A stretch of 64,000 nucleotides of DNA from an uncultured Candidatus Saccharibacteria bacterium (GTDB lineage Bacteria; Patescibacteriota; Saccharimonadia; CAILAD01; JADZBC01): positions 40,867-104,866 of the forward strand of contig CAZRJR010000002.1 of assembly GCA_964600985.1 (NCBI GenBank). The letters are read 5' to 3'. A program made the position numbers and the translations under genes. Positions 12,548 to 44,058 of this stretch are shown here, in pieces; the first letter of the stretch is position 1; each line of letters starts with the position of its first letter. The notes beneath the pieces were generated by a model. That model saw nothing but the letters and a program-made list of their open reading frames with translations. It was not told the origin of the DNA and ran no database searches.

Positions 12548-12561
12548 GGCTCACTCCTTCT

Positions 12562-12981: not shown

Positions 12982-13036
12982 AGTACGCTCCTTAGATCAG
13001 GAGATCAGGTTTGATCTCGCAGTAATACAATAGCAC

Positions 13037-14107: not shown

Positions 14108-14120
14108 GAGTCTAGTATAA

Positions 14121-14155
14121 CAAAGCGAAACCCGGCGAAGCCGAAATCTCGCCGG
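14121..14155 (-). terminator. Intrinsic terminator (CCCGGCG...CGCCGGG) for the GC-rich gene 14187-14609
   Basis: 7-bp GC stem followed by a U-rich tract on the minus strand. Confidence 0.5.
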
Positions 14156-14186
14156 GGGAACCCCACTCTTAACTTGCTGAGCCTCA

Positions 14187-14609
14187 CTACCACATGCTGC
14201 GACGAGGCAGATCTCGCCGAACTTCGTCTTCCCAGGGGTAACTGCGACCAGGGTTGTCGCGATAGTTGTAACGCCCTCGTGGACGACGAGGAGCTCTACC
14301 GAGGTGCGGATGCTGGGTGATCAGCCTGTCGATGGTCTCGATGGCAATCGACTTCGTGGTGTTGTTGGATGGGCCCGGAGCCTGTAGCGGGCGACGGAGT
14401 TCACGCGCTCTCTCTCGGCTGATGATGCCGCGCTTCACCAGTCCGTGAAGGTCGAAGCTGAGCGCCTGCTTCACCCTGCCCTCACTTGGGTAGGGCTTTT
14501 TCGGGTGGTATGGGTATGCATCACTGTAGAGCCCCACGGGGCCTCCTTGGCGAATCAGGAACACTAGCCAACCTGGCAAGTGTTGGAGGTATTTTATAAC
14601 TCTGGTCAC
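14187..14609 (-). CDS. Hypothetical protein in GC-rich island
   Basis: 140 aa, about 62% GC, Arg/Pro-rich. Coding status moderate. Confidence 0.35.
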   Translation of the reverse strand: MTRVIKYLQHLPGWLVFLIRQGGPVGLYSDAYPYHPKKPYPSEGRVKQALSFDLHGLVKRGIISRERARELRRPLQAPGPSNNTTKSIAIETIDRLITQHPHLGRAPRRPRGRYNYRDNPGRSYPWEDEVRRDLPRRSMW

Positions 14610-14716
14610 ATGTGGTCAATGAAGTATTTCAATTGGTGTCTTACCACCTAAACCCACAACAATAGGTTGTGAACTTGGGTAGTGCCAGTTTTGAGGGTCT
14701 GGCAACCTTGCTACGA

Positions 14717-15334
14717 CTAGGAGTCGGTGTCCGATCGCAGCTTACGGCTCTGCTCCCATGCCCTGAGCTCGGCCAGGCTGAACGGGTTGAGCCGCTCGTG
14801 GCGGCAGTACCACCACGCTACCTTCATGGCAGCGAAGTGGAGAACGCACACCACGGTGGCGATTCCTGCTCCGATCAGCGCGGCCTCACTCCAGAGCTGC
14901 TGGTGTTCTGCTGCGGTCAGTGGCTGGAGTGGCTTGCCGGTGGCAGGGTCGATCTGACCCGATGCAACCACCTGGTTGACCATCGAGTTGACGATGTAGT
15001 GCCACATGTCACCGACCACGATGGCTCCAGTCAACACGACCAGGCCATAGCAGGCCAGCACCTGGCGCTTGTGCCACACCACGTTCTCCTGGTAGGAGGC
15101 GTCGAGGGCACGCTTGCCGAAGCACTTGCTGAGCAACACCTCAGCGAAGAGGTGGACCCCACCGTCTTCACGGCGCCACCACTGGGCCAGCTTGATGCAG
15201 ATCACGCGAGCGGCGTAGTAGGCCAGGGGCAGATAGAGCAGGTATGCAAGGTACTTGTACATCATGTGCGATTTTCTCCCGCACTCTAGGGCGAATTTGA
15301 TTCCGCCGAAATACAACGGCATACATAATAGCAT
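14717..15334 (-). CDS. Hypothetical membrane protein in GC-rich island
   Basis: Several TM helices. The start is probably the internal MMYKYLAYLL (about 15265). Confidence 0.4.
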   Translation of the reverse strand: MLLCMPLYFGGIKFALECGRKSHMMYKYLAYLLYLPLAYYAARVICIKLAQWWRREDGGVHLFAEVLLSKCFGKRALDASYQENVVWHKRQVLACYGLVVLTGAIVVGDMWHYIVNSMVNQVVASGQIDPATGKPLQPLTAAEHQQLWSEAALIGAGIATVVCVLHFAAMKVAWWYCRHERLNPFSLAELRAWEQSRKLRSDTDS

Positions 15335-15573
15335 AAGCGTTAATGTATGTCAAGTACAACAAAGACCCCTCTCGGGGTCTAGGCAAATTATATAAGTCAC
15401 TGCCGTAGCTTACGGGATGATTTTAGAACCATCTACTTACAAGGCAAGAACCTGCCTTCATACTGAGTAATGAGATTGCACTTTACAAAATTTGAGATAA
15501 CCATAAGTAAGTGGCAGTTTACCAAATTATAGTAAAGACTCTTTTTAACAGGTCAGAAAAGTTGCATACTATT

Positions 15574-16326
15574 TTAGTTGACTTCTGAAGCTAATAGTGG
15601 CTGGACTCCTCCATCAACAATCAAATATTGTCCGGTAATATAGGATGATTTACTGCTAATAAAGAATTCAATAGAATCCGCAATTTCGGTTGGATCAGCT
15701 ATTCTCTTAAGTAACTGCCTGTTTGCAAGTCTCTTTATCTCTTCTGGACTTAAATGTTCTGTTAGCATTCTGGTATTTACAGCGCCTGGTACAACTGCAT
15801 TAATACGGACTCTATGCGGAGCTGCTTCAATTGCAAGTGATCTTACCAGTCCAAGTAGTGCAGCTTTAGAAGACGCATAAGCAGCGAGGCCGGCAGATGT
15901 AACTATTCCGTGTATAGAGCCAACCGCAACAACAGAAGGCCAATTTTGATTTCCCTCTGTACTATTTGCAAGTATTGGCAAAAGCTTTTTAACTACAATC
16001 CACGTATTCTTAACGTTAACTCTGAATGTGTAGTCCCATTCTTCCGAAGTCATTGCATTAAATGGTTTAACAAATTGCGCTGCAGCACACAGCACAATCC
16101 CGTTAATGGTTTTATGTTTCTTGATGCGGTTAAAAATCTCGTCCATGTTGTCTTCATTCGCGACGTCAGAATTATAGAACTCGTCTATCCATATACCATC
16201 GGGGGCAGTTTTGTCTATGCCTATAACATGCCAGCCTAATTGATGGTATTTTTTTGCAGTGGCTAAACCTATACCACTTGATGCCCCTGTTATAAGTATG
16301 ATTTTATTTGCCACTGATTTGTACAT
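15574..16326 (-). CDS. SDR family NAD(P)-dependent oxidoreductase
   Basis: TGASSGIG glycine-rich motif and the usual SDR catalytic residues. AT-rich (about 37% GC) segment. Confidence 0.75.
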   Translation of the reverse strand: MYKSVANKIILITGASSGIGLATAKKYHQLGWHVIGIDKTAPDGIWIDEFYNSDVANEDNMDEIFNRIKKHKTINGIVLCAAAQFVKPFNAMTSEEWDYTFRVNVKNTWIVVKKLLPILANSTEGNQNWPSVVAVGSIHGIVTSAGLAAYASSKAALLGLVRSLAIEAAPHRVRINAVVPGAVNTRMLTEHLSPEEIKRLANRQLLKRIADPTEIADSIEFFISSKSSYITGQYLIVDGGVQPLLASEVN

Positions 16327-17164
16327 TTGTTGGGTATTCCCCATTTCTGATTGCATGCATAAATACTAACCTAATAGCCTTAAATGACTTAAAAACCTGA
16401 ACAAGTGATGGTTTATACTCCGCTCGTAATTTCATCATTCGTGGTATTGCTTTAAGGTGGGGAAATAGTTCTTGATAGTATTGGACTTCTTCGGTGAGAC
16501 CCGTTGCCTTTCCCGTGAGACTAAAATAGCTGCTATGAAGAGCCCACTTGAGAGCAGACAGTGAATACTTGGTTGCGTGAGATGTAAAAGGATAGATTAT
16601 AAGTGCGTAAGCATTTAGCACCCAGTACATTACAAAGTTTCTCCAAACTTTTATCTTGGATATGGGTGATATTTCCGAACAGGGCTTAAGTAAATCTACA
16701 CCATAGATTACCCTAGCTGATAACTGTATGTTCTTATACCCTATATCAGTTGCCCATAATGGATTATCCAAGATAGCAGAGTCAAGCCAACTTTCTGATT
16801 TAAAAATTTTCCCCGTATCTTCATTGATGAATTCTGATTCTGTACATACAAATACGGATTTATATTGGGCACCAATTCGATCGAGGACTCTCACTACTCT
16901 ACCCTTAATATTTGTGGGCACGGGTCTAATTCCCATATCCTCTTCAATTTTGTACAGAACTTGTTTTAATGCACTTATGTCTGATAGAGATGTTTCATCT
17001 TGAACGGCTACAATAAGATCTAAGTCTGATAACTTATCTATATCCTGCTTAGCTAAACTCCCAAATAATATTATCGAAACAATATCGATTTGGTTTTTTC
17101 TCGCAAATTCAAGTACCCGTTTCTTTATTAGGTCAAGATCTGATGTATTCTTATTTTTTGCCAT
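16304..17164 (-). CDS. Nucleotidyltransferase-domain protein (Pol-beta superfamily; ANT/Lnu-like or minimal NTase)
   Basis: LFGSLAKQDIDKLSDLDLIVAV GS...DxD motif in the N-terminal 60 aa. 286 aa, AT-rich. Confidence 0.6.
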   Translation of the reverse strand: MAKNKNTSDLDLIKKRVLEFARKNQIDIVSIILFGSLAKQDIDKLSDLDLIVAVQDETSLSDISALKQVLYKIEEDMGIRPVPTNIKGRVVRVLDRIGAQYKSVFVCTESEFINEDTGKIFKSESWLDSAILDNPLWATDIGYKNIQLSARVIYGVDLLKPCSEISPISKIKVWRNFVMYWVLNAYALIIYPFTSHATKYSLSALKWALHSSYFSLTGKATGLTEEVQYYQELFPHLKAIPRMMKLRAEYKPSLVQVFKSFKAIRLVFMHAIRNGEYPTNVQISGK

Positions 17165-17410
17165 GATTGCAGCATATTATATTAAATCTCAAAATTGATG
17201 TCCATTGTGGGCTTGAATGTCTTCATGTCTTTTGGAGATTTCTTTCCGCACTATAAACCTCCTCTCAAAGTCTTCAATAAGGTGCTTGTGTATGGAGTAG
17301 CTTACGAGCTGATATACGAACCACATAAAGCGAAACCCTCTCGAGTCCCGCATGTAGAATGCGAAACCCAAGAGGGCGGGTGCTGGGTGAACCAGTAGTG
17401 TTGGGATGGG

Positions 17411-17878
17411 TTAGGTGTCCGTGGTCACCGTCTGCTCGACATCGTCGGTGGTCTTGTCGAAGAGGTCGTGGTACATCCGGTGGAGACGCTCATGCTCGGA
17501 GGCGACGTACTCGCGCTGGGCGGTCCTCGTGGTGTGCGTCTTCTCGACGGCGGCCACAGCCACACTGTACTCGGGCTCGATGAAGGCCATGTACGGCGCA
17601 TCGTTCTCGGTCGGCACGTAGCCAGGGTGGTCGGCCTCCCATGCGGCCTGCTTGGCCCGCAGGGCGGACATGGCATCGCACTCCTCAGCGCGAGCCAGGT
17701 GGAAGTCGGCCTCCAGCTTGCTCATCTCCGCACGGGTGCGCTCGAACTCAGCCATGTAGCCGAGTGAGTCAGGCGGAAGGTCTGCAGTCGCCAGGTTCGA
17801 GGGGTCCATCGGTGCGCCGAGGTCGATGATGATGCCACCTCCGATGCCGATGCCGAAGATTTCTTCGGTGAGTCCCAT
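17411..17878 (-). CDS. Hypothetical acidic protein in a GC-rich (about 65%) insert
   Basis: 155 aa. Chosen over the overlapping alternative frames because of length and a start with an upstream purine-rich stretch. Flanked by direct repeats (17258-17323 and 18008-18066). Confidence 0.35.
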   Translation of the reverse strand: MGLTEEIFGIGIGGGIIIDLGAPMDPSNLATADLPPDSLGYMAEFERTRAEMSKLEADFHLARAEECDAMSALRAKQAAWEADHPGYVPTENDAPYMAFIEPEYSVAVAAVEKTHTTRTAQREYVASEHERLHRMYHDLFDKTTDDVEQTVTTDT

Positions 17879-18043
17879 GACTCTACCTAACCTTTCTCCC
17901 CGTTCGGGGAGGCAACCTAAGTAGCTTTAGGCTATCTTCCCGAGGGGAGGGAATATAACTTAACATATACCAAGCCATGTGTCAACGCATTTACCCTTGA
18001 GCAAAAAGACTCCTCTCGGAGTCTTCAATAAAATGCTTATGTA

Positions 18044-18120
18044 TGGTGTATCCGGAGGGATTCGAACCCCCGACCCCCAGCACCGCAAGCTGATGCTCTA
18101 TCCAACTGAGCTACGGATAC
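18044..18120 (-). tRNA. tRNA-Arg (anticodon reads GCG)
   Basis: GTATCCG acceptor stem, D-arm GCTCAGTTGGATAGAGC, anticodon stem TCAGC/GCTGG with loop TTGCGGT, T-arm GGGGGTTCGAATCCCTC, encoded CCA. The backbone aligns closely to bacterial tRNA-Arg(ACG), but position 34 is G. Confidence 0.7.
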
Positions 18121-18290
18121 ACGTGTAAAACAACCGTTATTCTACCCTATTTAAGCCCATCTGTAAATTGTAGCTTCCTGGCCATCGAAGATCAGAAAGG
18201 CTGGAATGGAAGAAGTAAGACTGAGCGAGGATTGCAGAGCCCTGCCTTGAGGGCGAACCCCGCAGCGAAATTCATACCTCAAAGTTAACA

Positions 18291-18456
18291 GCTGCCTCTA
18301 GATCTGAGTCAGGGCCAGGAATACTTTTGCCTACTTTTGGTATGTTCAAAAGTAGGAGATGGCTTAAAAAAGGGTTTATGCAGACCCTTCGGCTCCGCTC
18401 AGGGTGACGGATGAGTATTCAAGATGACGAAGTAGAACCTTTTAGATTATCTAAAA
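18291..18456 (-). repeat. Decayed copy of the hammerhead-associated element (inverted relative to the copy at 33580-33784)
   Basis: The reverse complement aligns to 33612-33784, including the hairpin CCTACTTTTG-N7-CAAAAGTAGG and GTCACCCTGAGC...CGAAGGGTCTGC. The ribozyme core is mutated (TTAGATA for CTGATGA). Confidence 0.55.
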
Positions 18457-19852: not shown

Positions 19853-19942
<90 letters not shown>

Positions 19943-20466: not shown

Positions 20467-20560
20467 TGGCGGAGAGGGAGGGATTCGAACCCTCGCTAGA
20501 GATTGCTCCCTACTAACGGTTTAGCAAACCGTCCCCTTATAGCCACTTGGGTACCTCTCC
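20467..20560 (-). tRNA. tRNA-Ser (anticodon GCT)
   Basis: Anticodon stem ACGGT/ACCGT with loop TTGCTAA. Long variable arm. Encoded CCA. Confidence 0.85.
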
Positions 20561-25573: not shown

Positions 25574-25753
25574 TTATATGATAGTAAAAGTGCGTGCAAA
25601 AGGCGAACCGCCACCGCCCCAACGAGGGGCGGTGGCGATCATGGTGGCGACGTAGATGGCCTCGAAGATGATGAAGGTGACCAGCCCGAAGGCGAGAGTC
25701 ACCAGGCCAATCTTCGTGTACCAGACGAGCTGGAGTAGTTCGGGATTAACCAT
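25574..25753 (-). CDS. Small hypothetical membrane protein in GC-rich island
   Basis: About 62% GC. A single TM helix and a Gly-rich tail. Weak. Confidence 0.25.
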   Translation of the reverse strand: MVNPELLQLVWYTKIGLVTLAFGLVTFIIFEAIYVATMIATAPRWGGGGSPFARTFTII

Positions 25754-26120
25754 GGGTTGTCTCCTCGATGGGTAGCGGCCGGCCATGCTCGTCCGTGCCG
25801 TGGAGGGTGCGGTTGACGATGCGTTGCACCGCCCGCAAAACTTCCCTGAGGTCCACCTCCCGGAAGGCAGGGTTCAGATGGTTTTGCCCGACCTTGAAGT
25901 CGTTGGGGTCAAGTGCATCTAGCTCCTCCAACGCTGCTCTGAGTCGGGCCAACTCAGCTCGGTCATCTGCCAGAAGGTCCTTGATTTGATCCAGGCAGAG
26001 CGAGCGTTCATGGACGGTTGCTGCGTCTGCTAGGATCTCCCTGAGCGCTGCATCGAGCGCTACATCGTCCCTCATCGCGCCTGCTTGTTGCGGCGGAGGT
26101 TGATGCAGGCCACCAGCCAC
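25746..26120 (-). CDS. Hypothetical protein in GC-rich island
   Basis: 124 aa, Ala/Leu/Asp/Arg-rich helical protein. An additional 56-aa ORF (26085-26252, minus) lies upstream. Confidence 0.35.
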   Translation of the reverse strand: MAGGLHQPPPQQAGAMRDDVALDAALREILADAATVHERSLCLDQIKDLLADDRAELARLRAALEELDALDPNDFKVGQNHLNPAFREVDLREVLRAVQRIVNRTLHGTDEHGRPLPIEETTHG

Positions 26121-26374
26121 AGGCAGGTGAGCGCTGCAACCAGCTTGCTGGCGCGACCACCCATGAACGAACTCACACAGCTGGAGTGCCGATGGGGCTC
26201 CCAGCTGCTCTCGCCAGCCATGTAGCTTTTTTGCATCTGCTCGATTGCCATGGTGCTCCCTTGCTCTTGATCCTATAGTAGGATTCCCAGATTTTGGGTT
26301 GGCAATATCATACCACTTTTGGCTATATGGTCAAGGGTTCGGGGTGATCGGGGCGGTCTGTTACAATAAACTCA

Positions 26375-28439: not shown

Positions 28440-28974
28440 GCTCGGGAGTATATTGCAAGCAGTTCCTTGTAATATCGCTGCACATTGAGACTTAATTGGC
28501 TCTGTGCACATACCCCCCGAATCCGGTACGCCACTGCAGAAGGTGTAAAGTATGCTGGTGCGGGAGGGCTCCCCGAACCAGCATATACCGGCTGAGGGGG
28601 TCCTCTCGCGGCGCTTCTGCGTCCAAATAGTGTTCCTGCACTCGCTCAGCGCCAGAAGACTTGCCGGGTTCCCCCTAACCTGTGCGTCTCTACGTTGAAT
28701 GCTGCACTTATTACTCATAACTCCAAAACGGGTGTAGTGTGAGTGCAGGAACCTAGTCTCCAAGCTGGTTGTGACGCGCAGCCCATGTGCTCCTGGCTTG
28801 AACCCGGATGCCGGCGGTGGTATTCCGGGGAGATCTGTGCCGGGATCGACCGGCGCTAGAACTGGGGTTCATCCTTACCCCGGTGGCGAAAAACCCTCCC
28901 AAGTGTTGTTTCGCTGTAATGCTCACGGGTCGGGTCGTCTTCGGACGGCTCGACCCGGGGGTTCTTTTTATTTT
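28440..28974 (+). other. GC-rich apparently non-coding segment ending in a strong intrinsic terminator. Candidate structured RNA of unknown class
   Basis: No ORF with protein-like composition. Many GC-rich stems. A terminator at 28926-28974 (CGGGTCGGGTCGTC-TTCG-GACGGCTCGACCCG plus T-tract) sits 500 nt after the femAB stop. Confidence 0.3.
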
Positions 28975-29508
28975 GGCAATAATCCCTACCGAATTTCGTA
29001 TAAAGCAAACGTCCCAGTCAAAGTTGACTGGGATTCGGGGTGGGGCCGGGAGCGAGTCCCGACCCCACCGAACTGCGCACCGAGCTAGCCCCGGTGGAAC
29101 CTAGGTGCCGTACGTTGACCTAGGTTGGTCTCACCGCTGTTTCAGGTGAGCATCATCTGGCGCGGCCGTCGGGGCGGTCAGATGATGGTGGAGGCGAGGA
29201 AGACCTGGGTGGCCGCAGCAGCCACCGGGCGACCGCGAGCAGCGGTCGGCACGGTCTTCAGCTCACCCTTCAGCATGGTGCACATGCAGTACCTCCAGGA
29301 GGCGTAGGGCGACTCCGAACGGCGTTCCGTTCGGGCATTACAGCGCTGCAGCACATAGGTGCGGAAGGTGGTTTCGGAACTTCTCTCGGCTACATTCCCG
29401 GTTCAACTCCAGGAGATACAACGTTGGTCAGAACATCTGCTTTACCTTACAGCGTTAGGGTAATTTTGGCTTAGCCTCCGAATTCTGTCAAGGACTCCAT
29501 ACTAATTT

Positions 29509-31853: not shown

Positions 31854-31968
31854 TTGACAAACTAAAAGTAATGCCCTATAATGGGCCTCAACATTTGAAT
31901 AGCTATAGGTATCGAAACACCCCGCCACGGAGCAAGCCTTAAGGCTCCAGCAAAGCGGGGTTTTTTGT
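31854..31968 (+). ncRNA. Candidate small RNA: consensus sigma-70 promoter (TTGACA-17-TATAAT), about 80-nt transcript, intrinsic terminator
   Basis: -35 at 31854-31859, -10 at 31877-31882, terminator GCGGGG TTTTTT ending at about 31966. No ORF. Confidence 0.4.
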
Positions 31969-32440
31969 CCCAAGAAATGTAAGGCTACAAGTGTCTAGGC
32001 AGAAGCAGTGAGGCTTCTCCTCTCATGTTTAACGGCCGCGCTTAGGATCGCGACCTGACATGAGGGGGCATCCTAGACCTCTCAGGTAACACAACTTCCT
32101 TATTGTTGTGCGTGGCAGCGACGCTCTCGCTGCGCCTAAAGTGACCTACAAGCAGGTCTAACTAGGTAACTACATACTTTAACCCTGGCTTCCGCCGAGT
32201 GGATGATGCTTAATGCACCACATCTGGCTATGGACTGTCACCGTCAAGTTGTGGTTGCTATGCATAGTCACTACTCATTGCTAGTAGTGGGAGTGGTGAA
32301 CTATAAAATCAGAAATTATCTAGGAGCCCCATAGATTCTCTTTGCTTAGGATCGAAGAGCGCAATGGGGCGGAATAATCCTCCGTCATCCCGGCCGAGCG
32401 ACCGATTCGCTTTGTACCTACCAAGGAAAGGGGTGGAGTC

Positions 32441-33490
32441 ATGGGCCGCTTGCCCATCTTCATCTTCGCCGTCGTGTTCATCATCGGTGGCATTGTCATC
32501 AGCAGCATCGCCAAGCGCAAGGCTCGTACGGCCGAGCGCGAGGCAGCTGACGTGCCGGAGGAGTCTGGCGGCTACGGCTACAGCCATGGTGATGCCAAGG
32601 CTCGGCTCCGCCGCGAGGCGGACCAGGCCCACATGGTGGCCGTGGGGGCCAAGGCCGTCGGCCTGGGCTTCGGCCTGATGCTGCTGGCCTACAGCGTGCT
32701 CAGGGTCGTCTCGGCCAACACGGTGGCAATCCCGACCAACTTCGGAGCCATCGGCAAGCCGGTCAACCCGGGCATCCACCTGACTGCACCCTGGACGGAG
32801 TACCACTCCTTCAGCACGCGGATCCAGGAGAGCCAACGACTCAGTGCGACCGACGAGGGCGACAAGACCTCGTCGGACTGCGTCACGGTCGCAGCCAGCG
32901 ACGGCGCAGACGCATGCGTCGATGCCACCATCCGCTTCACGATCGACAAGGGTCGTGCGGACGAGTTGTACCGGCGGTACGGAAGCTTCGATGCCATCAC
33001 CAGCAAGCTGGTTCGCCGCGAGGTGGAATCCGGCCTGAAGGTGGTCTACGGGCAGTACACGCCCGAAGAGGCCAAGAGTGGTGCCAAGTTGGCGACCATC
33101 GAGCGCGACAGCAACGAGGTGCTCAAGAAGCGCCTCGACCGCTACGGCGTCACGGTGGATCGGGTCGTCCTCGGTCGGGTCCAGTTCACGGACCCGGCGG
33201 TGCAGCAACGCATCGACGACAAGATCAAGGCCCGGCAGGAAGCTGAGAAGGCCGTGATCGAGCAGAAGACCGCTCTGACGCGCGCCGAGACCAAGCGGAA
33301 GGAGGCCGAGGTCAACGCCAAGGCCAAGCTCATCAACGCTCAGGCCGAGGCAGATGCCAACGCCAAGCTCGCAGCTTCGCTCACGCCCGAGCTCCTCACC
33401 AAGCTGTACTACGAGGCTCTGGCCAAGGGCGGCAAGGTGATCGTGACCAATGGCGCGCAGGCGCCGGTCATCGTCGACAGCGGCAACTAG
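32441..33490 (+). CDS. SPFH/Band-7 (prohibitin/stomatin-like) domain membrane protein, high-GC
   Basis: N-terminal TM, SPFH-like core (PTNFGAIGKPVNPGIHLTAPW...VDATIRFTIDKGRADELYRRYG), coiled-coil C-terminus. About 66% GC, against about 48% for its neighbours. Confidence 0.7.
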   Translation: MGRLPIFIFAVVFIIGGIVISSIAKRKARTAEREAADVPEESGGYGYSHGDAKARLRREADQAHMVAVGAKAVGLGFGLMLLAYSVLRVVSANTVAIPTNFGAIGKPVNPGIHLTAPWTEYHSFSTRIQESQRLSATDEGDKTSSDCVTVAASDGADACVDATIRFTIDKGRADELYRRYGSFDAITSKLVRREVESGLKVVYGQYTPEEAKSGAKLATIERDSNEVLKKRLDRYGVTVDRVVLGRVQFTDPAVQQRIDDKIKARQEAEKAVIEQKTALTRAETKRKEAEVNAKAKLINAQAEADANAKLAASLTPELLTKLYYEALAKGGKVIVTNGAQAPVIVDSGN

Positions 33491-33579
33491 GCCGCAACAC
33501 AACAAGTAGTTCCTTCGGGGACTACGCAGGCACAGGAGTAAGCCCCACAAACTCCTCACTCCGAGCTTCGGCTCGGGGT

Positions 33580-33636
33580 GGCAACATCAATAACTGAGTA
33601 GTTATTCTGATGAGTCCAAAAGGACGAAATGTTGTA
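33580..33636 (+). ncRNA. Hammerhead ribozyme, type III (self-cleaving)
   Basis: GGCAACA-UC (cleavage after C33588), stem I hairpin AATAACT-GAGT-AGTTATT, CUGAUGA, stem II GUCC-AAAA-GGAC, GAAA, and UGUUGU pairing back to GGCAACA. All conserved core nucleotides are present. Confidence 0.8.
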
Positions 33637-33784
33637 AGTTACTTTCGGCGGTCATACTTTGTCACCTGAGCCAGTCGAAGGGTTTGCCTTAACTCTCTAA
33701 TTCTCCTCAAAACACCTTCCTACTTTTGAATATGCCAAAAGTAGGAAGGTGTATTCCCAGCATGGGACTCACATCTAGGAGCAC
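33637..33784 (+). repeat. Structured sequence downstream of the hammerhead, repeated (inverted, decayed) at 18291-18456
   Basis: Contains the hairpin CCTTCCTACTTTTG-AATATGC-CAAAAGTAGGAAGG. Aligns with the reverse complement of 18291-18456. Confidence 0.55.
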
Positions 33785-33920
33785 CCAATTCCTCATCATA
33801 CAGATATTCGCTCCCACTGCGAGTTTAAAGACTCTCGTGGTTAGCTTATTCTAATGCTTCGAAACTGTTTTTCCTGATGTTCGAATGCTGGATAGGGCAA
33901 GAAGCAAAGAAATCAAGGGC

Positions 33921-33981
33921 TTGACGGGCCCACAGCTACTTTTGTACACTGTACTTAGCACTCAAAGCATTAGAGTGCTAA
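33921..33981 (+). promoter_or_regulatory. groESL promoter (TTGACG-18-TACACT) overlapped by a CIRCE operator TTAGCACTC-N9-GAGTGCTAA (HrcA site)
   Basis: Perfect CIRCE inverted repeat at 33955-33981, immediately upstream of groES. Confidence 0.85.
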
Positions 33982-38591: not shown

Positions 38592-38681
38592 GGAGAGGTC
38601 GCATAGTGGTCTAGTGCGCCGCCTTGGAAAGGCGGTGTAGGGGCAACTCTACCGAGAGTTCGAATCTCTCCCTCTCCGCCA
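38592..38681 (+). tRNA. tRNA-Ser (anticodon GGA)
   Basis: Anticodon stem CCGCC/GGCGG with loop TTGGAAA. Long variable arm. T-arm GAGTTCGAATCTCTC. Encoded CCA. Confidence 0.85.
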
Positions 38682-39584: not shown

Positions 39585-40877
39585 TTACTTCACAGTCACT
39601 TGGGTTTCGAAGGTTAGGGCTGGCGTTTCGAATAGGTGAGGGGCACTTACAAACCCTGTCGATGGTTGCTTAAGAACATCAAAGAAGTTCCCTGAGAGAA
39701 TGCAATTAATGGAGCCAACAATTTCGCCTTCGCGAACTACCAGAACTTCAGGAGCCGGAAGAGAGTATCTACCCAATACTGGGTTAGCGGCGTAAATACC
39801 CATAACACTAAGGACTAATAGGAATACAGGGTGCTTACCTGCGAATTCCTTATATGCTAAACCAAATTGATTATCAGAAGCTAAGCTCGGGAGAGCTTTA
39901 GCGCCATATCCAAGTTTAAGGGCTGTTTTAAGGTCACATATTGGCTCTAAAAGTCGGCCATTTTTAATGACATCAAATTTTTGCCCAAGCACACCTTGAG
40001 GACTAAAGCCAAAACTATATGTACTCATTGGCTGTGATTGGTCAAAGGACAGATTAAAGTCGTCGTGGGCAATTTGCAGGTTCTGTTTAAAGTCCCCAGG
40101 TAAGTATTTAGCTATTCCAGTATCGATGAGTGTTCCACTAATGTTACTAAGAAGGAACTTATCTAATATTGACCACCCATTATCGGAATCGATAAGAACG
40201 GGATATCTTCCGGTTTCTAGGGTTACTTTGGAGTCGAGCTTACTCACAAAACTAGCGTACAGGCTTGATTTCTCTACAAAACTCGATGGACTAAATAGTG
40301 CACGTGCAGTTGATCCGGCGCCTATCCTGTCATCATAATATGCATACAACGCTTCTTTAGTAGAAGACTGTTCAAGTTCTACTCCTTCTGAGGAAATGAG
40401 GCAGCTTTGCTGTGTGGTAAATGATACACCTCCTTCAGTTAAGTTAAGGCCTTGTGTAAGCTGTAGTTCTTGGTGCTCCTTGGTATAACTTGTAATTCTC
40501 GCAGGCTCATTATTTACGATATTGGCAATTGCTGGATCAAATAATTGAGGTGGGTTGTAGCTCTTGGGCTTGGGTGCAAAAACGGGCAGGTCTTTAGGGC
40601 TGTGGGCTCCGTTAATGATTTGCTCTAAAAGACCTTCAATTGGCATATCAAATCGTGCAGAGCCAAGACTGTACTCACCAGAGGTCAGCTTGACCAAGTA
40701 ATCTATTCCCGAAATATCCACATTCCTTACAGGACGGTAAATACCACCATAATTTTCATTGATAAATCCACTTTTTAACTCATGGGTGCTTGTCGCATGA
40801 ACTTGAAAGCTATCGATGGAGGGATGTCTCTTTAGTGCACCAATTATTACGTCTTCAAGATAAGCGCGGTCTATCAT
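39585..40877 (-). CDS. TldD/PmbA family protein (TldE/PmbA-like subunit)
   Basis: 430 aa. Pattern and size typical of the non-catalytic TldE/PmbA partner. Translationally coupled to the upstream TldD-like gene. Confidence 0.6.
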   Translation of the reverse strand: MIDRAYLEDVIIGALKRHPSIDSFQVHATSTHELKSGFINENYGGIYRPVRNVDISGIDYLVKLTSGEYSLGSARFDMPIEGLLEQIINGAHSPKDLPVFAPKPKSYNPPQLFDPAIANIVNNEPARITSYTKEHQELQLTQGLNLTEGGVSFTTQQSCLISSEGVELEQSSTKEALYAYYDDRIGAGSTARALFSPSSFVEKSSLYASFVSKLDSKVTLETGRYPVLIDSDNGWSILDKFLLSNISGTLIDTGIAKYLPGDFKQNLQIAHDDFNLSFDQSQPMSTYSFGFSPQGVLGQKFDVIKNGRLLEPICDLKTALKLGYGAKALPSLASDNQFGLAYKEFAGKHPVFLLVLSVMGIYAANPVLGRYSLPAPEVLVVREGEIVGSINCILSGNFFDVLKQPSTGFVSAPHLFETPALTFETQVTVK

Positions 40878-42376
40878 GCTATACTCACGTGTTTAGTTGG
40901 CCCAAAGAAGACCAGTTCGTGTCCGCCATCACTTACATATGCGACTTGGCCTGCCTTACCACAATTCCCAAAATCATCGGTTTGAAGCTCTCCTACGCCG
41001 AATTCAATTGCCTTGAGTGCCTCAAGGACACTACCGCTAAATGACATTGGTTGCTTTGGCGTTACCTTGTCTGCAGTTAATTCATAGGTGTATCCAGCAC
41101 CAAACATAAAGTCACCTGTTTTAGCAGCAACTTGGCCTGCTCGAAAACCAATAAGATAGTAGATCTTTGGGTGTCGATCAAAAATACCCTTCTCTTTTAA
41201 AAGTCCCCATACTTTTGTTGGGTCGCTTGATGGAAGCTTTTCGGCAATCAATAAATCTTTGTGAAGTTCAATATATGTAGTGGACATTCGAGGAATTGCT
41301 ACTGCACCATAGTGCTCGCTTCTCTCGGCATTCTTATTGGCCACACCAATTTTCTTACCCGTAAAGATATCACTAATAGACTCCTTCAGGATGCCATCTT
41401 CAATAATCGTGATTGCTTTTCGTTGGTTCCCGAAAGCTCCGTAAGGATGGTAGCCATGGTTAAGCCCTTCTTCGTGATCGCGAATGGTAACCCCACGGGC
41501 TGCAACTTGTTTGCCAATCAACATTTTATTATCCTTACTACCGAGTACACTGGCGTTTTCCGCGATAGCATCAGATTCTGCTGGGTGGCCGAGAGCCTCG
41601 TGAACAAGGGTTCCAGCAAGGTTTCCAGCGACCAAGACAGGTAAGTTGCCTCCCTCTGCAGCACTTGCATCTAGTTGCTCTTCGGCAAGGAGCAATTCCT
41701 GGTCGATGAGTTGTTTTGCCTTATCTATATCACTTAGCAAATCTTTTGCTAATGGACGAAAGAGTGATATGTGAGCTGTTGTAGATTTTTCTCCTTTGCG
41801 GATGGTAAATATCACGCCTCCTCGAGTATAGGGTATAGCGAAGTCGACATCGGTGTTATCACTTCTGACAATCCTCCACTGTACTTGCTCGGATGTAAAC
41901 GTAACCATTGGTTTAGCATCTGGCCTTTTTGATAATACGTATTTTTCAAGTTCATGGGCAAAAGATTCGATTTCCGATTGTTTTATTGAGGCAGGGTCTT
42001 GGACTACATAGTGCAGATCATCTTCGCCTAAATTGTCCTGGTAGGCAAGCTCAAATATCTCCTTTGCAGTATCTGCTCCTTTTTCTTCATTTGATCGAGC
42101 AACCTTAGCGGTGTCCTGTAATAATTTACTTACGGTTGCTACATCTAGCTTATTTGTGGCACCAAAGCCTAGGTGGCCGCTCTTTGTAAAACAGTATAGT
42201 CCTGCCCCGCTAATATCACTCTGGTTTACATCGTACACAGCACCACCTTGCCAGCGGAAGGTGTATTTGCTGGTGCTGTTGAGGCGCAGAACGGTGTAAA
42301 CGTCCATTTTTTTTGCACCTTCAAGCGCAGCTTTGACTATTGCATCATATTCGCGGAGGAGTTTAGACTTACTCAT
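40874..42376 (-). CDS. tldD: TldD-like metalloprotease
   Basis: 500 aa with the HEALGH metal-binding motif (LVHEALGHPAESDA) and a TldD-type C-terminal GxC motif region. Confidence 0.7.
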   Translation of the reverse strand: MSKSKLLREYDAIVKAALEGAKKMDVYTVLRLNSTSKYTFRWQGGAVYDVNQSDISGAGLYCFTKSGHLGFGATNKLDVATVSKLLQDTAKVARSNEEKGADTAKEIFELAYQDNLGEDDLHYVVQDPASIKQSEIESFAHELEKYVLSKRPDAKPMVTFTSEQVQWRIVRSDNTDVDFAIPYTRGGVIFTIRKGEKSTTAHISLFRPLAKDLLSDIDKAKQLIDQELLLAEEQLDASAAEGGNLPVLVAGNLAGTLVHEALGHPAESDAIAENASVLGSKDNKMLIGKQVAARGVTIRDHEEGLNHGYHPYGAFGNQRKAITIIEDGILKESISDIFTGKKIGVANKNAERSEHYGAVAIPRMSTTYIELHKDLLIAEKLPSSDPTKVWGLLKEKGIFDRHPKIYYLIGFRAGQVAAKTGDFMFGAGYTYELTADKVTPKQPMSFSGSVLEALKAIEFGVGELQTDDFGNCGKAGQVAYVSDGGHELVFFGPTKHVSIA

Positions 42377-43093: not shown

Positions 43094-43438
43094 ATGAAGA
43101 CATTAACTAGAAGCAACAAGGCCTCAGTCCCTTCTGCTAAAGATTATGCCAACTGCGGCTTGGCTAAAACCCTAAAGATCATTGGCAGTAAGTGGACGCT
43201 CATGATTCTGTATAGCTTGTTCGAGGGGACTAAGCGCTTTGGCGAGTTGCAGGACTCGCTTGGCCTCAGTCCGCGTACCTTGGCCTTGCGGCTACAGCAG
43301 CTCGAGCAAGATGGAATTATAACTAAGAAGGCGTATGCCGAGGTGCCGCCGCGCGTAGAGTACTCGCTCACCGAAAAAGGTCGCTCACTCCATAAGGTAA
43401 TCAAAGATCTCAGCGCCTGGGGCGATACGCGCTGCTAG
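43094..43438 (+). CDS. HxlR-family winged-helix transcriptional regulator
   Basis: CGLAKTLKIIGSKWTLMILYSLFEGTKRFGELQ...VEYSLTEKG. Divergent from the FMN reductase gene, a common regulator/target pairing. Confidence 0.8.
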   Translation: MKTLTRSNKASVPSAKDYANCGLAKTLKIIGSKWTLMILYSLFEGTKRFGELQDSLGLSPRTLALRLQQLEQDGIITKKAYAEVPPRVEYSLTEKGRSLHKVIKDLSAWGDTRC

Positions 43439-43547
43439 CCCGAATTCTGTAGTTATTTACCACCACAAAGCTGAATTATAAAGCTCAATTCGGCTCTCTG
43501 GTGGTGCTTGAACCTGAGTCCGACGACCCAAGTTCAAGCGAGCACCC

Positions 43548-43835
43548 TCACTGGCCACTGCCGGGGCACTTTGGCCCACGGCGTGGTGGCGCGTGCTCGG
43601 CGCGCGGCGGCAGCTCTTTCCAGTGGTCTGGGATCTTGGGCGCGAAGGGCTCCGTGCTGAGCGGGCCTTCGTGCACCAAGATGAAGTGAGCTTCGCAGCC
43701 TGGGTGCGGGCAGTCACGCTCCAGTACTGCAACCGGCCTGAACCAACACGCCGTAGACGGACTGTGGCCTTTTGGCAACACACAGCGTCTGCCACTAGAG
43801 CCGAGGGGAAAACCACATTGCTCATTCTCTGTCAC
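43548..43835 (-). CDS. Hypothetical Cys/His-rich small protein in a GC-rich insert
   Basis: 95 aa. About 62% GC over a 400-bp segment. Coding is uncertain. Confidence 0.25.
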   Translation of the reverse strand: MTENEQCGFPLGSSGRRCVLPKGHSPSTACWFRPVAVLERDCPHPGCEAHFILVHEGPLSTEPFAPKIPDHWKELPPRAEHAPPRRGPKCPGSGQ

Positions 43836-44058
43836 TATTAGACTCCTGTCTCTTTCTTCGAGTCATCAGGATTGGTCCTATTACTCGTTCTTACGCGCAT
43901 CGCGATGATGGTAAGAATAGTCGTACCAACCAAGACGGCAGCGATTGCATAGGGCACTTCGTTAAGCGTAACACCTTCTTTCAAGGGTCGGGTGGACAGA
44001 TCTGGAGGGACTCAGATCGCTGCAGGTATTATAGGAAAGTAAGACGCAGAAAACTAGC

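Follow-up and report, generated by a model that had tools for sequence, protein, structure and literature searches.

GC-rich single-gene units in intergenic gaps of a Saccharibacteria chromosome, including an SPFH gene between a conserved leader and a hammerhead ribozyme

Single genes flanked by hammerhead ribozymes have been described from prophage regions (PMC3088659), and most of the gene transfers detected into Patescibacteria stem from other Patescibacteria (PMC12455944). In phages, members of the SPFH/Band-7 family PHROG 200 are annotated as 'membrane protein, Band-7-like' (actinophages) or 'lipoprotein' (T5-like phages). Here, we analysed a 64-kb stretch of DNA (the window) in which a GC-rich SPFH gene lies beside groESL and is followed by a hammerhead ribozyme. 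The assignment of the window to Saccharibacteria is backed by GroEL: its nearest loci are 81% and 77% identical, and the second of them is labelled Candidatus Saccharibacteria. Related contigs and genomes used for comparison carry labels such as L001, L002 and L081. We consider it probable that the GC-rich segments are accessory, fast-evolving cassettes of one or a few genes, held in a limited set of intergenic gaps of the Saccharibacteria chromosome.

Base composition of the window and its GC-rich islands

The GC content of the whole window is 50.1%, and the sliding GC profile delineated the following islands:

11201-13000, GC 0.51-0.58
14801-15200, GC 0.625
17401-17800, GC 0.65
25601-26200, GC 0.61
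29001-29400, GC 0.635
32401-33400, GC 0.65-0.67
43401-43800, GC 0.605
52801-53200, GC 0.645
56201-57000, GC 0.58-0.59

An earlier sequence-only reading of this DNA had put the background at ~48% GC, which is lower than measured, and had listed nine GC-rich segments, all of which (9/9) were reproduced by the profile. For one of them, 11400-13010, given there as ~56%, the elevation was present but only mild. GC3 per gene, the measure which that reading had proposed, was calculated for the 71 window genes (median 0.535, robust SD 0.07), and seven of the 71 were high outliers (0.70-0.87, z 2.3-4.9), well beyond chance:

32441-33490, GC3 0.87, z=4.9
17411-17878, GC3 0.84, z=4.4
14717-15265, GC3 0.83, z=4.2
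56341-57027, GC3 0.79, z=3.6
52770-53195, GC3 0.75, z=3.0
25574-25786 and 12242-12547, GC3 0.70 each, z ~2.3

Six low-GC3 outliers are also present in the window, for example at 15574-17164 (37-40% GC).

In the pooled island genes, GC1, GC2 and GC3 were 0.60, 0.45 and 0.81, corresponding to rises of +0.04, +0.05 and +0.26, respectively. The GC-richness is restricted to coding sequences, while promoters, leaders, the ribozyme and neighbouring mobile-element genes are not GC-rich; the segments 28440-29480 and 43440-43850 are GC-rich without a convincing intact ORF. The GC-rich segments are small genes in variable gaps between housekeeping genes. About 10% of the genes in the clade hold GC3 0.2-0.35 above that of the genome, even syntenic orthologs with synonymous-saturated neighbours, and such a persistent excess is not predicted by simple drift of imported DNA toward recipient composition.

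This pattern could arise without any foreign donor, if GC were raised internally by recombination hot spots with GC-biased gene conversion, or by selection for GC-rich codons (e.g. for stability of ribozyme-processed transcripts). The rise being coding-only and chiefly at third positions, with flanking regulatory DNA and mobile-element genes not GC-rich, is what such a process would leave, and so is its persistence in positional orthologs beside dS-saturated neighbours. The GC-rich genes also evolve faster than their neighbours (60-69% identity for the HAD-like proteins described below versus 74-85%), ORFs in the gap between NUDIX and GNAT genes are unalignable despite a conserved 5' end, and recombination at the SPFH locus is directly evidenced. 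However, conversion tracts should lift the flanking non-coding GC too, which was not seen, and the two ORF-less GC-rich segments exist. Moreover, a GC3 shift of +0.25 to +0.35 far exceeds the effects reported for bacterial biased gene conversion. We regard internal GC-raising as a minority explanation that keeps some weight.

The compositional contrast itself, and nothing beyond it, would also fit an assembly or binning artefact, with high-GC reads of another organism joined into the contig. Against this, two independent Logan assemblies carry an identical SPFH protein in the order PGM - 304-aa ORF - SPFH - groES/groEL, and a 171-kb NCBI contig is recorded as encoding the SPFH and island proteins. 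The island edges fall on promoters, ribosome-binding sites and stop codons, and GC-rich orthologs are found at the same positions in several further assemblies. The chance of an artefact is negligible.

Anatomy of the SPFH unit and its hammerhead ribozyme

The focal island is a discrete unit of ~1.8 kb (31854-33636, + strand), which consists of a sigma-70 promoter, a leader, the coding sequence, three hairpins and a type III hammerhead. The features of the unit and of the region up to groESL are:

31854-31882 (+), SPFH-unit promoter: TTGACA, 17 nt, TATAAT, with 12/12 consensus matches
31885-31972 (+), conserved leader: invariant AGCTATAGGTATCGAAA box, then a nested hairpin with terminal U-tract
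31990-32135 (+), second conserved leader block: hairpin with loop GCTTAGGATCG at about 32025-32065
32310-32440 (+), proximal 5' UTR: second GCTTAGGATCG-loop hairpin, then ribosome-binding site AAGGAAAGGGG
32441-33490 (+), SPFH/Band-7 (prohibitin-type) membrane protein gene: 349 aa, GC 0.651, GC3 0.87
33506-33525, 33534-33556 and 33557-33580 (+), three stable 3' UTR hairpins downstream of SPFH
33580-33636 (+), type III hammerhead ribozyme: right edge of the DNA common to the window and L081
33650-33790 (+), repeated intergenic element: GTCACCTGAGC..CGAAGGG motif, 20-bp hairpin (33709-33755), then CTCACATCTAG
within 33921-33981 (+), groESL promoter: TTGACG, 18 nt, TACACT
33955-33981 (+), CIRCE operator TTAGCACTC-N9-GAGTGCTAA, read directly from sequence

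The alignment with L081 and L082 starts exactly at the SPFH-unit promoter, which marks the left edge of the shared DNA. The leader at 31885-31972 is kept in L081, L090, L001, L085 and L087; two covarying pairs were found in its inner stem, with weak overall support for a consensus structure, and comparison with Rfam gave no family match at E<=1. In appearance it resembles an attenuator or a small RNA. Further downstream, 280 nt including the block at 31990-32135 are 83.6% identical to L081/L082, and the proximal 5' UTR is conserved with the same two contigs, including one compensatory stem change (GCCCCAT..ATGGGGC in the window versus GTCCCAT..ATGGGAC).

The SPFH/Band-7 gene proposed at 32441-33490 by the sequence-only reading was confirmed by Pfam PF01145 (Band_7), with 79.3 bits against a cut-off of 23.6; the match spans residues 89-277 and profile positions 2-174 of 176. 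As read from the sequence, the protein has a hydrophobic N-terminal stretch at residues about 5-24 (PIFIFAVVFIIGGIVISSIA) and an Ala/Glu/Lys-rich helix region at the C-terminus. It scored 24.1 bits with the HflK equivalog TIGR01933, below the cut-off of 159.4, and 167 bits (E=1.1e-48) with phrog_200, where residues 62-339 align to profile positions 77-348 of 379. The phrog_200 match is a family resemblance only and no demonstration of phage origin. An antisense ORF at 32309-33559, longer than SPFH, was rejected as spurious, the real gene being the + strand ORF.

The minimum free energy fold of 33488-33640 had z=-5.3 versus shuffles. The last hairpin, 33557-33580, holds CCGAGC-TTCG-GCTCGG (33561-33576) directly before the ribozyme, and this hairpin and another at 17905 had been read as terminators of high-GC type. 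Both hairpins exist, but neither has a U-tract and no terminator was called at either. The terminator scan found a U-tract on none of the three SPFH 3' UTR hairpins, and the hairpin at 17896-17911 belongs to the 5' leader of the ORF 17411-17878. The intergenic element at 33650-33790 has a second copy at 18290-18412 (- strand), and in L081 and L083 a related piece precedes the SPFH promoter. The region 33921-33981 is conserved in L081, L090 and L001 and forms the right-hand bound of the variable slot.

The hammerhead is formed by stems III (CAACAU/AUGUUG), I (AATAACT/AGTTATT) and II (GUCC/GGAC); both core elements, CUGAUGA and GAAA, are present, UC precedes stem I, and cleavage is predicted 3' of C33588. 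Rfam RF00008 matched over its full length with 42.5 bits (E=6.7e-6), under the gathering score of 48.5, and our own covariance model gave 72.8 bits for 33580-33636. Across 19 instances, 99% of cells were paired and 13 of 17 pairs showed compensatory change, values reached by 0/500 shuffles (slid controls paired in 33-50% of cells), although the alignment was fitted to our own model and thereby somewhat favours the structure. The A15.1-U16.1 pair was invariant in 18/18 distinct sequences, and in stem III a base pair is deleted or inserted in step. Judged by covariation, the hammerhead at 33580-33636 is genuine.

The covariance-model scan found one hammerhead in the window, so only one of the nine islands carries one and the ribozyme link cannot account for all islands. 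In L081, six hammerheads were found within 21 kb, and five of these form a single array (HHR-AAA_28-HHR-exonuclease-HHR...HHR-CMK-HHR). In related contigs, the mean GC3 of ORFs immediately upstream of hammerheads was +0.21 over the locus median, and an excess above +0.15 was found in 69% of these ORFs versus 11% of background ORFs (Mann-Whitney p=5e-7; instances are not independent, with related loci pooled and about nine distinct gene families). Such GC-rich ORFs include unrelated ones without known relatives in nine JGI contigs (L135-L143; taxon not established). Well-supported hammerheads are thus identified in Saccharibacteria and statistically tied to GC-rich ORFs.

The combination of GC-rich ORFs and hammerheads could instead represent phage 'moron'-type genes, that is, remnants or cargo of temperate phages or plasmid-like elements which deposit single expressed genes. 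SPFH fits phrog_200 far better than HflK, and its relatives are encoded by 1,318 phage genomes. Hammerheads flanking single genes have been called typical of prophage regions (PMC3088659); the L081 array fits this, and in L081 IS1595 and Replic_Relax genes adjoin the SPFH unit. The same hammerhead core also occurs in 36 viral contigs; these, however, are mostly 30-50% GC and have no proteins in common with the islands. For eight island ORFs, neither the PHROG families nor a set of 50,697 phage genomes rich in actinophages gave a match. Near the window islands we noted no genes for phage structural proteins, integrases or lysis, and a Pfam scan of ~40 of the 71 window genes found none that was phage-like. 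Phage GC is usually at or below host GC, not 15 points above. A phage origin of this type appears improbable to us.

The SPFH locus and the other islands in related genomes

All of the nearest SPFH homologs (69-96%, then 44-53% identical) come from related Saccharibacteria, where they occupy the same PGM-groESL-PGI neighbourhood. There, too, the gene is GC-rich relative to its background (40-52% GC); in L085 and L087 (genomes ~43% GC), SPFH GC3 is 0.67-0.72. The SPFH unit has ~90% nucleotide identity to L081, versus 69-76% for the flanks. For the SPFH gene alone, the identity was 91.7% with dS 0.31, compared with dS 1.14 for GroES, 2.44 for GroEL, and saturation for the phosphoglucosamine-mutase-type gene, the 304-aa ORF and PGI. 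Relative to the window, L090 is 94.7% identical in GroEL and just 73% in SPFH, whereas L081 is 86% identical in GroEL and 96% in SPFH; SPFH and GroEL relationships are thus in disagreement. These sequence comparisons showed that the SPFH allele was exchanged between lineages of Saccharibacteria long after the chromosome around it had diverged, and that the aligned unit has sharp edges at the -35 box and the ribozyme 3' end.

The promoter-leader also occurs at the SPFH loci of the distant Saccharibacteria L085 and L087, and a hammerhead is found at the same locus in L001 and L090. Since both elements are present in other Saccharibacteria, the immediate donor was another Saccharibacterium or one of its mobile elements. 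The syntenic gap is empty in L002, and in L001 the slot holds an unrelated 597-aa ORF (GC3 0.82) between the same leader box and hammerhead. This identifies a chromosomal gap beside groESL that holds differing cargo genes, each with the same leader before it and the same ribozyme after it. In L081 and L082, the SPFH unit adjoins an IS1595 transposase and has two different downstream contexts; a Replic_Relax gene is also near the unit in L081, where the mobile-element genes have 43-48% GC. Within the part of the window genes that was scanned, we identified no recombinase, integrase or transposase close to the SPFH unit, and no integrase or transposase adjoining any other island.

The other islands contain the following features:

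17259-18050 (-), islet at tRNA-Arg: 41-nt direct repeats at 18010-18050 and 17259-17299, 85% identical
inside this islet (-): promoter 17985-17957, leader hairpin 17896-17911, 155-aa ORF 17411-17878 (GC3 0.84) and 3' region
56341-57027 (-), HAD/YqeG-like gene: 228 aa, GC3 0.79
52770-53195 (+), 141-aa ORF: GC3 0.75, in the gap between NUDIX and GNAT genes
14187-14537 and 14717-15265 (-), two GC-rich ORFs: 116 aa and 182 aa (GC3 0.83 for the latter)
25574-26260 (-), GC-rich insert between tsaD and the first femAB-like gene: 70-aa membrane ORF 25574-25786 and 124-aa acidic ORF 25746-26120
28440-29480 (no strand), GC-rich insert of ~1.07 kb from femAB to the phosphoglucosamine-mutase-type gene, without intact ORF
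43440-43850 (no strand), GC-rich segment between hxlR and msrB, without convincing ORF
11438-12981 (-), mildly GC-rich block: three small ORFs (205, 101 and 139 aa; GC3 0.60-0.70), two of them membrane-like

In the tRNA-Arg islet, the final 7 nt of tRNA-Arg (18044-18120) are part of the upstream copy of the repeat, and the islet contains no integrase gene. The 25574-26260 insert is absent from L001, where the flanking genes are ~55 nt apart. The 28440-29480 insert is likewise absent from L002 and L085, where femAB and the phosphoglucosamine-mutase-type gene are 10 nt apart; it is probably a decayed cassette, and it contains a hammerhead-like relic at 28988-29039 (- strand) without the CUGAUGA core (13.4 bits, E=0.26, not significant). 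The ORFs 14187-14537 and 14717-15265 are called genes, each the sole member of its 90%-identity cluster, and neither matched Pfam. At the NUDIX-GNAT gap, the 5' region 52722-52784 is conserved with L094 and L095, which carry GC-rich ORFs in place of 52770-53195 whose proteins have no detectable similarity to the window ORF; the gap is GC-rich in all three genomes. Several islands are thus supported as inserted or exchangeable DNA by the genome comparison.

The HAD-like gene has a syntenic ortholog in L094 (GC3 0.84) and L095 (GC3 0.81). Seventeen close homolog clusters were found at 58-72% identity, with the next matches at <=33%, and both of the clusters with retrieved context (2/2) were Saccharibacteria-like syntenic loci. 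This gene looks vertically inherited, and 'cassette' may misname it. Its earlier description as a HAD-like phosphatase has a sub-threshold match and a name behind it: the YqeG model TIGR01668 gave 25.1 bits against a cut-off of 89.1, and a 63%-identical homolog is named YqeG by JGI. No HAD match was found in Pfam.

The sequence-only reading had explained the islands as DNA acquired from a high-GC, perhaps actinobacterial, donor. As to acquisition, the SPFH exchange, the empty gaps in relatives and the tRNA-Arg repeats support insertion for several islands. Presence in sister genomes was compared at five islands, with 11400-15340, 17340-17880 and 43440-43850 outside the comparison, and the outcome was divided: 25575-26260 (L001), 28440-29480 (L002, L085) and SPFH (L002) are absent, and the HAD-like gene and the NUDIX-GNAT gap are present (L094, L095).

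The donor is another matter. Recent, repeated transfer from the chromosome of a high-GC actinobacterial host would make the islands fresh imports of undrifted composition. Saccharibacteria and Actinobacteria are linked by lifestyle, the pooled codon-position values fit a donor of ~60-65% GC, several islands are insertions relative to relatives, and one has a tRNA-linked direct repeat. The 205-aa ORF (11438-12055) also weakly matches the Rv1733c family (27 bits versus a cut-off of 80), with no match among plasmids. However, none of the island proteins tested gave an actinobacterial homolog, five of the small island ORFs being searched against the phage collection and profile libraries only (and 11438-12055 against plasmids as well). 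For SPFH and the HAD-like gene, the nearest homologs are Saccharibacteria genes at the same loci and GC-rich there too; for the islands tested, closest homologs of similar GC in other CPR genomes and conserved synteny were thus both found, the two observations that the earlier reading itself had named as speaking against import. The leader and hammerhead of the SPFH unit are present at the same locus in other Saccharibacteria, and three lineages share the HAD-like gene in synteny and with equally high GC. For 17411-17878, only four distant relatives were found among 1.84 billion cluster representatives (a library without taxon names). The best plasmid and phage matches of SPFH are <=30% identical and taxonomically scattered, and eight island ORFs lack phage matches. 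The SPFH sister clade (34-42% identical) comes from 63% GC contigs of unknown taxon, with neighbours that best match proteobacterial plasmids at <=42%. SPFH may have a remote high-GC ultimate source. Nothing found ties the SPFH gene to an actinobacterial donor, and we rate recent host transfer as very unlikely. Compositional islands in an epibiont need not be host-derived; the traceable exchange here is between Saccharibacteria.

Proposed cassette exchange and comparison with known systems

If the GC-rich segments are exchangeable cassettes, incoming DNA may have been taken up from the environment in a competent lineage, and homologous recombination would swap the cargo, its arms being the conserved leader on one side and the 3' hairpin-ribozyme region on the other. 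IS1595 and plasmid-like elements might carry the SPFH unit to new sites, as L081 and L082 suggest. The ribozyme would cut the transcript after C33588, leaving an mRNA end 12 nt past the stable hairpin and separating the SPFH mRNA from read-through into downstream genes. Because the GC-richness is coding-only and persists in orthologs of deeply diverged lineages, it would reflect continual re-seeding from a clade-internal GC-rich gene pool, or a gene-specific GC-raising force, and not DNA newly imported from the chromosome of an actinobacterial host. The analysis found no GC-rich donor pool.

Two bolder readings were considered. One, which we think doubtful, is that cargo is swapped in a slot whose fixed recombination arms are the leader and the hairpin-hammerhead; this would be a previously undescribed device for cassette exchange. 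Far less credible is that the units of promoter, GC-rich ORF, hairpin and hammerhead form a distinct Saccharibacteria cassette system, whose host-like (actinobacterial, GC3 ~0.8-0.9) codon usage is selected since the ribozyme-processed transcripts act or are translated in the high-GC host cell. If true, this would explain the coding-only GC-richness, its persistence in deeply diverged orthologs and the ribozyme-defined RNA ends.

The exchangeable-cassette reading offers a handle on how the reduced genomes of competent epibionts gain and express accessory genes. The SPFH unit may also provide a natural expression cassette, with consensus promoter, leader and predicted ribozyme-defined 3' end, for the emerging genetics of Saccharibacteria.

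The SPFH protein resembles HflK/HflC and prohibitin-type scaffolds (FtsH protease modulators) in its Band_7 domain and in a putative membrane anchor and coiled-coil tail. The chaperonin operon next to its gene suggests that it may act in the quality control of membrane proteins. It differs from HflK/HflC in its score with the HflK model (24 bits versus 159) and in having no adjacent HflC-like partner gene. With phage SPFH/Band-7 proteins (PHROG 200) it has in common the strong profile match and a single-domain architecture with a putative N-terminal anchor; identity to any phage copy, however, is at most ~30%, the gene is chromosomal and beside groESL, and its close relatives are all from Saccharibacteria.

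The island at 17300-18009 resembles tRNA-linked genomic islets, as it adjoins the tRNA-Arg 3' end and has a 41-nt direct repeat including the last 7 nt of the tRNA. Unlike these, it is ~0.7 kb with a single ORF and without integrase, and the tRNA contains only 7 nt of the repeat. With 85% identity between the repeats, the integration event would be old. As in the survey of gene transfer within Patescibacteria (PMC12455944), the exchange partner belongs to the same phylum, with a divergence of ~8-10% here versus 4-35% reported. Compositionally distinct, ribozyme-tailed single-gene units, or fixed gaps with alternative cargo, are not described in that survey.

The hammerheads of prophage regions (Perreault et al. 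2011, PMC3088659) are the closest match for the ribozyme. Both are type III with a canonical core and directly follow single genes of varying identity, which in L081 are flanked on both sides, and the shared placement implies that transcripts are cut into single-gene units. No report of a compositionally distinct gene upstream of a hammerhead was found in the literature searched. In contrast to the prophage cases, no prophage could be recognised around the present unit, which is part of a Saccharibacteria chromosome. It has its own promoter and a single ribozyme instead of several hammerheads bracketing genes, and it carries upstream of the ribozyme a gene set apart by its composition, with GC3 raised by +0.2 to +0.3.

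Composition of the GC-rich segments

The window has a GC content of 50.1%, and a 400-nt sliding GC profile recovered all nine GC-rich segments claimed by the sequence-only reading, with peaks of 0.60-0.67. The focal stretch 32401-33400 reached 0.65-0.67, and at 11400-13010 the rise was present but only mild. In a curated set of 71 window genes, median GC at the third codon position (GC3) was 0.535, with a robust SD of 0.07, and seven of the 71 genes were high outliers.

High GC3 outliers among the window genes
32441-33490, SPFH gene, GC3 0.87 (z=4.9)
17411-17878, GC3 0.84
14717-15265, GC3 0.83
56341-57027, HAD/YqeG-like gene, GC3 0.79
52770-53195, GC3 0.75
25574-25786, GC3 0.70
12242-12547, GC3 0.70

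The pooled shift of the GC-rich genes was mainly at the third position (GC3 +0.26, compared with +0.04 for GC1 and +0.05 for GC2). Six genes of the same set were low GC3 outliers, showing that compositional heterogeneity goes in both directions. Two large neighbouring genes (430 and 500 aa) at 39585-42376 (-) had a low GC3 of 0.36-0.38, z about -2.4. A low-GC gene pair at 15574-17164 (-), with 37-40% GC and GC3 0.32, encodes a short-chain dehydrogenase and a Pol-beta-type nucleotidyltransferase; it sits between two GC-rich islets near tRNA-Arg, and 14.1-18.0 kb resembles a variable region of composite make-up.

Two antisense ORFs, 32309-33559 (416 aa, GC1 0.82) and 14669-15289, were discarded: in both, GC1 exceeded GC3 and no family match was seen, so they were taken for shadows of the SPFH gene and of a real gene, respectively. 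Segment 25575-26260 was not a single long gene, with several stops in both candidate frames of highest GC, and its best reading is a 124-aa acidic ORF at 25746-26120. Segments 28440-29480 and 43440-43850 contained no convincing intact ORF, and the GC-rich ORF-less segments were rejected as structured RNA genes, with no Rfam match at E<=1.

The arrangement of the islands is no assembly artefact: the SPFH protein was identical and the gene order the same in two independent Logan assemblies, and the island ORFs are called genes on a 171-kb NCBI contig. The nearest GroEL loci were 81% and 77% identical, the latter labelled Candidatus Saccharibacteria, and on this sequence basis the source organism is a Saccharibacterium.

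The SPFH expression unit and its hammerhead ribozyme

The focal gene lies on the + strand at 32441-33490 and encodes a 349-aa SPFH/Band-7 protein (Pfam 79 bits, cut-off 23.6). The edges of its unit were defined by aligning the window locus with the related contigs L081 and L082; the three contexts part ways directly left of the -35 box and directly right of a ribozyme.

Features of the SPFH unit and its downstream border
31854-31882 (+), SPFH promoter, 12/12 consensus
31885-31972 (+), conserved leader with an invariant AGCTATAGGTATCGAAA box (AGCUAUAGGUAUCGAAA) and a nested hairpin that resembles a terminator and runs into a U-tract
32025-32065 and 32335-32375 (+), two leader hairpins with a common GCTTAGGATCG loop
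32441-33490 (+), SPFH coding sequence
3' of the coding sequence, three stable hairpins (fold z=-5.3)
33580-33636 (+), type III hammerhead ribozyme
33921-33981, groESL's own promoter and CIRCE operator, just downstream of the unit

The leader recurred in L081 (9364-9450) and in three other related contigs, L001 (7345-7432), L085 (9465-9556) and L087 (2726-2816), preceding SPFH, or alternative cargo in L001, in distant lineages as well. It had no Rfam match and may be an attenuator, a riboswitch-like element or a small RNA, with weak covariation support. One of the two GCTTAGGATCG-loop hairpins showed a compensatory stem change relative to L081, and the pair may be two copies of a site bound by a protein or an RNA.

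An intergenic repeat of about 130 nt was found at 33650-33790 (+), after the hammerhead, and at 18290-18412 (-), upstream of tRNA-Arg. It comprises a GTCACCTGAGC..CGAAGGG motif, a perfect 20-bp hairpin and then CTCACATCTAG. A related piece lies upstream of the SPFH promoter in L081 (9130-9290), beside IS1595. The repeat may be a miniature mobile element or an insulator.

The Rfam match to the window hammerhead was full-length (42.5 bits, E=6.7e-6), below the gathering score of 48.5. With our own covariance model, built from six instances, it scored 72.8 bits, and the model found 19 copies in the window, in related contigs (L081 at 11140, 18066, 18827, 19253, 19950 and 20671; L001 at 9560; L082 at 3107; and a further one, L090, at 1505) and in JGI contigs with the same variant. 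On these copies 99% of cells pair, compared with only 33-50% in slid controls, and 13 of 17 pairs showed compensatory change. The A15.1-U16.1 pair was invariant, a whole base pair of stem III was lost or gained in step between the window and L081, and in the L082 copy stem II is expanded while the core is intact. Judged by this covariation, the hammerhead motif in the window is genuine.

The same model gave no second convincing hammerhead in the window. The candidate at 28988-29039 (-), in an ORF-less GC-rich segment, was rejected (13.4 bits, E=0.26). It keeps stem III, the UC site, a 7-bp stem I and GAAA, with other sequence in place of the CUGAUGA core and stem II, and would at best be a hammerhead-like relic.

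Cleavage is predicted 3' of C33588, and the SPFH mRNA would then end 12 nt past the CCGAGC-UUCG-GCUCGG hairpin. This hairpin had been taken for a high-GC terminator; given the predicted cleavage site and the lack of a U-tract, it makes more sense as a cap at the 3' end of a transcript processed by the ribozyme. The second hairpin taken for a terminator, at 17896-17911, belongs to a 5' leader.

On L081, a stretch of 21 kb contains six hammerheads, one after SPFH and the other five in an array (HHR-AAA_28-HHR-exonuclease-HHR...HHR-CMK-HHR) whose genes have GC3 0.66-0.80. A JGI metagenome scan for the window's variant gave nine more contigs (L135-L143), which had no genes in common with the loci compared. 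Five of the nine have a GC-rich ORF without known relatives directly upstream of the hammerhead, and these ORFs are mutually unrelated, save in the near-identical L135 and L141. ORFs just upstream of hammerheads exceeded the locus median GC3 by a mean of 0.21, the JGI contigs being of no assigned taxon, and an excess above +0.15 was seen in 69% of them compared with 11% of background ORFs (Mann-Whitney p=5e-7, with non-independent instances and only about nine distinct gene families). The type III hammerheads of the Saccharibacteria contigs are well supported and sit directly behind GC-rich genes, in L081 flanking them on either side.

Exchange and origin of the SPFH unit

The SPFH coding sequence was 91.7% identical to that of L081, with a dS of 0.31, whereas flank dS was 1.14 for GroES and 2.44 for GroEL and saturated for the phosphoglucosamine-mutase-type gene, the 304-aa ORF and PGI. 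The SPFH and GroEL relationships conflict: L090 was the closest by GroEL (94.7%), yet its SPFH was 73% identical with GC3 0.66, and L081 had a GroEL of 86%, yet an SPFH 96% identical. The gap itself was variable. In L002, another related contig, the 304-aa-ORF homolog adjoins groES directly, with no SPFH and no hammerhead, and L001 has a 597-aa ORF (GC3 0.82) that is preceded by the leader box seen in the window and followed by the window's 3' region and hammerhead. This cargo is no diverged SPFH, since BLASTP against SPFH gave E>=8.5, indicating that the two are unrelated. An IS1595 transposase directly adjoins the unit in both L081 and L082, whose downstream contexts differ; L081 also has a plasmid-type Replic_Relax gene close by. 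The dS contrast, tree conflict, variable gap and IS context indicated that the immediate donor was another Saccharibacterium or its element.

Identities of the closest SPFH homologs were 96, 87, 75 and 69%; behind them came a group at 44-53%. All those with fetched context lie between the phosphoglucosamine-mutase-type gene and PGI, beside groESL, on Saccharibacteria-like contigs, and every one is GC-rich against its own background (GC3 0.88 in L081, 0.66 in L090, and 0.67-0.72 in L085 and L087, whose genomes have about 43% GC). They form one clade in a neighbour-joining tree, a crude one without support values. The sister clade (34-42% identity) comes from 63% GC contigs of no assigned taxon. 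In two of these, L089 and L144, the SPFH protein had no plasmid match and the adjoining oxidoreductase best matched proteobacterial plasmids at <=42%. An actinobacterial assignment of this group was not demonstrable. SPFH copies of plasmids and phages were taxonomically scattered and at most 30% identical. Among the GC-rich genes found in the relatives, those with a recognised domain (ferredoxin, CMK, AAA_28, RNase T-like and cpYpsA) matched plasmids at best at 27-49% identity, scattered over Streptomyces, Pseudomonas, Listeria and Desulfosarcina, and no donor signal emerged from these plasmid matches.

The islands had been read as possible transfers from a high-GC actinobacterial host. Lateral mobility is supported, but for the islands examined an actinobacterial donor does not survive the refutation tests that the sequence-only reading had itself set: the nearest SPFH homologs are Saccharibacteria-like syntenic loci, and nothing about the origin of this gene indicates Actinomycetota.

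Phage 'moron'-type origins are one live alternative for the GC-richness. The SPFH protein matched the phage SPFH family phrog_200 at 167 bits (E=1e-48), its HflK equivalog match being far weaker (24 bits, cut-off 159). A phage origin via the common hammerhead core was rejected: the 36+3 viral contigs sharing it were mostly low-GC and had no proteins in common with the islands, and this core variant is generic.

Other islands and the cause of GC-richness

The HAD/YqeG-like gene 56341-57027 had 17 homolog clusters at 58-72% identity, the next matches being <=33%. In L094 and L095, contigs syntenic with this region, it occupies the same LytR...MgsA-GNAT neighbourhood, with GC3 0.84 and 0.81 and flanks of about 0.5, and its proteins are more diverged (60-69% identical) than the neighbours (74-85%). 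Synteny and GC3 in these contigs speak against a recent import; by this comparison the gene is ancestral in the clade and has stayed GC-rich. The dS of the trio (0.77-1.16) was not read as pointing to a recent exchange, since synonymous differences saturate at a lower level under strong codon bias. The NUDIX-GNAT gap holds a GC-rich ORF in the window, L094 and L095, about 82% identical over 64 nt at the 5' end and essentially unalignable as proteins. A GC-rich ferredoxin gene is present in L094 and L095 and missing from the window.

Islands 25575-26260 and 28440-29480 were missing at syntenic sites of L001, L002 or L085. The island at 17300-18009 comprises a promoter of its own and a 155-aa ORF, and is bracketed by a 41-nt direct repeat taking in the last 7 nt of tRNA-Arg. 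Among 1.84 billion cluster representatives, the family of the encoded protein had four distant relatives. Eight island ORFs were each the sole member of their 90%-identity cluster and had no phage-genome match; neither they nor the 124-aa ORF had a PHROG match. These ORFs had no NCBIfam/Pfam family beyond one weak match, that of a 205-aa membrane-like ORF at 11438-12055 (-) to the mycobacterial Rv1733c family (sub-threshold, 27 bits, cut-off 80). This was the only hint of actinobacterial affinity seen, and the ORF had no plasmid match.

Further features were noted in the window. Four tRNA-Ser isoacceptors (CGA, TGA, GCT, GGA, that is, all) and tRNA-Arg (anticodon GCG) lie inside 30 kb (8938-9029, 19853-19942, 20467-20560, 38592-38681 and 18044-18120). 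Inverted repeats of 34 nt (7244-7277 and 7623-7656; 85% complementary, CCGAGC..CGAGG-type motif) enclose a 121-aa ORF, 7245-7610, the left arm overlapping its 3' end. Tandem paralogous small genes of 117 and 122 aa (4982-5335 and 5341-5709, +) contain a 228-nt direct repeat, 80% identical.

The comparisons show discrete expression units, allele exchange inside the clade, alternative cargo in fixed gaps and a genuine hammerhead motif. We infer that cargo would be swapped by homologous recombination, through the conserved leader at one end and the 3' hairpin-ribozyme region at the other, and that insertion-sequence or plasmid-like elements would relocate the unit now and then. The ribozyme would set a hairpin-capped 3' end, insulating downstream genes.

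GC-richness was limited to coding sequence and kept in deeply diverged orthologs, which is a poor fit to a one-off import followed by drift to recipient composition. Continual re-seeding from a putative GC-rich pool is a live explanation. Mobile-element genes beside the unit had only 43-48% GC. L082 (1-6463; ENA ERZ27309394 k141_2536), a 6.5-kb contig of 56.6% GC, carries, in this order, IS1595, SPFH with hammerhead, three further GC-rich ORFs (GC3 0.60-0.79) and, at its end, a second SPFH 3' UTR copy; it may be a piece of a mobile element or come from a pool of GC-rich cassettes. A locus-specific GC-raising force, either biased gene conversion or selection on mRNA, is another live explanation.

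The islands are a variation on two kinds already described, genomic islets and genes flanked by hammerheads, and their GC-richness is the one unexplained property. Most detectable transfers into Patescibacteria originate in Patescibacteria (PMC12455944), and the donor of the window SPFH allele is likewise from the same clade. Our literature search returned no report of compositional contrast at hammerhead-flanked genes, nor of hammerheads in Saccharibacteria. Hammerheads flanking single genes are known in prophage regions (PMC3088659).
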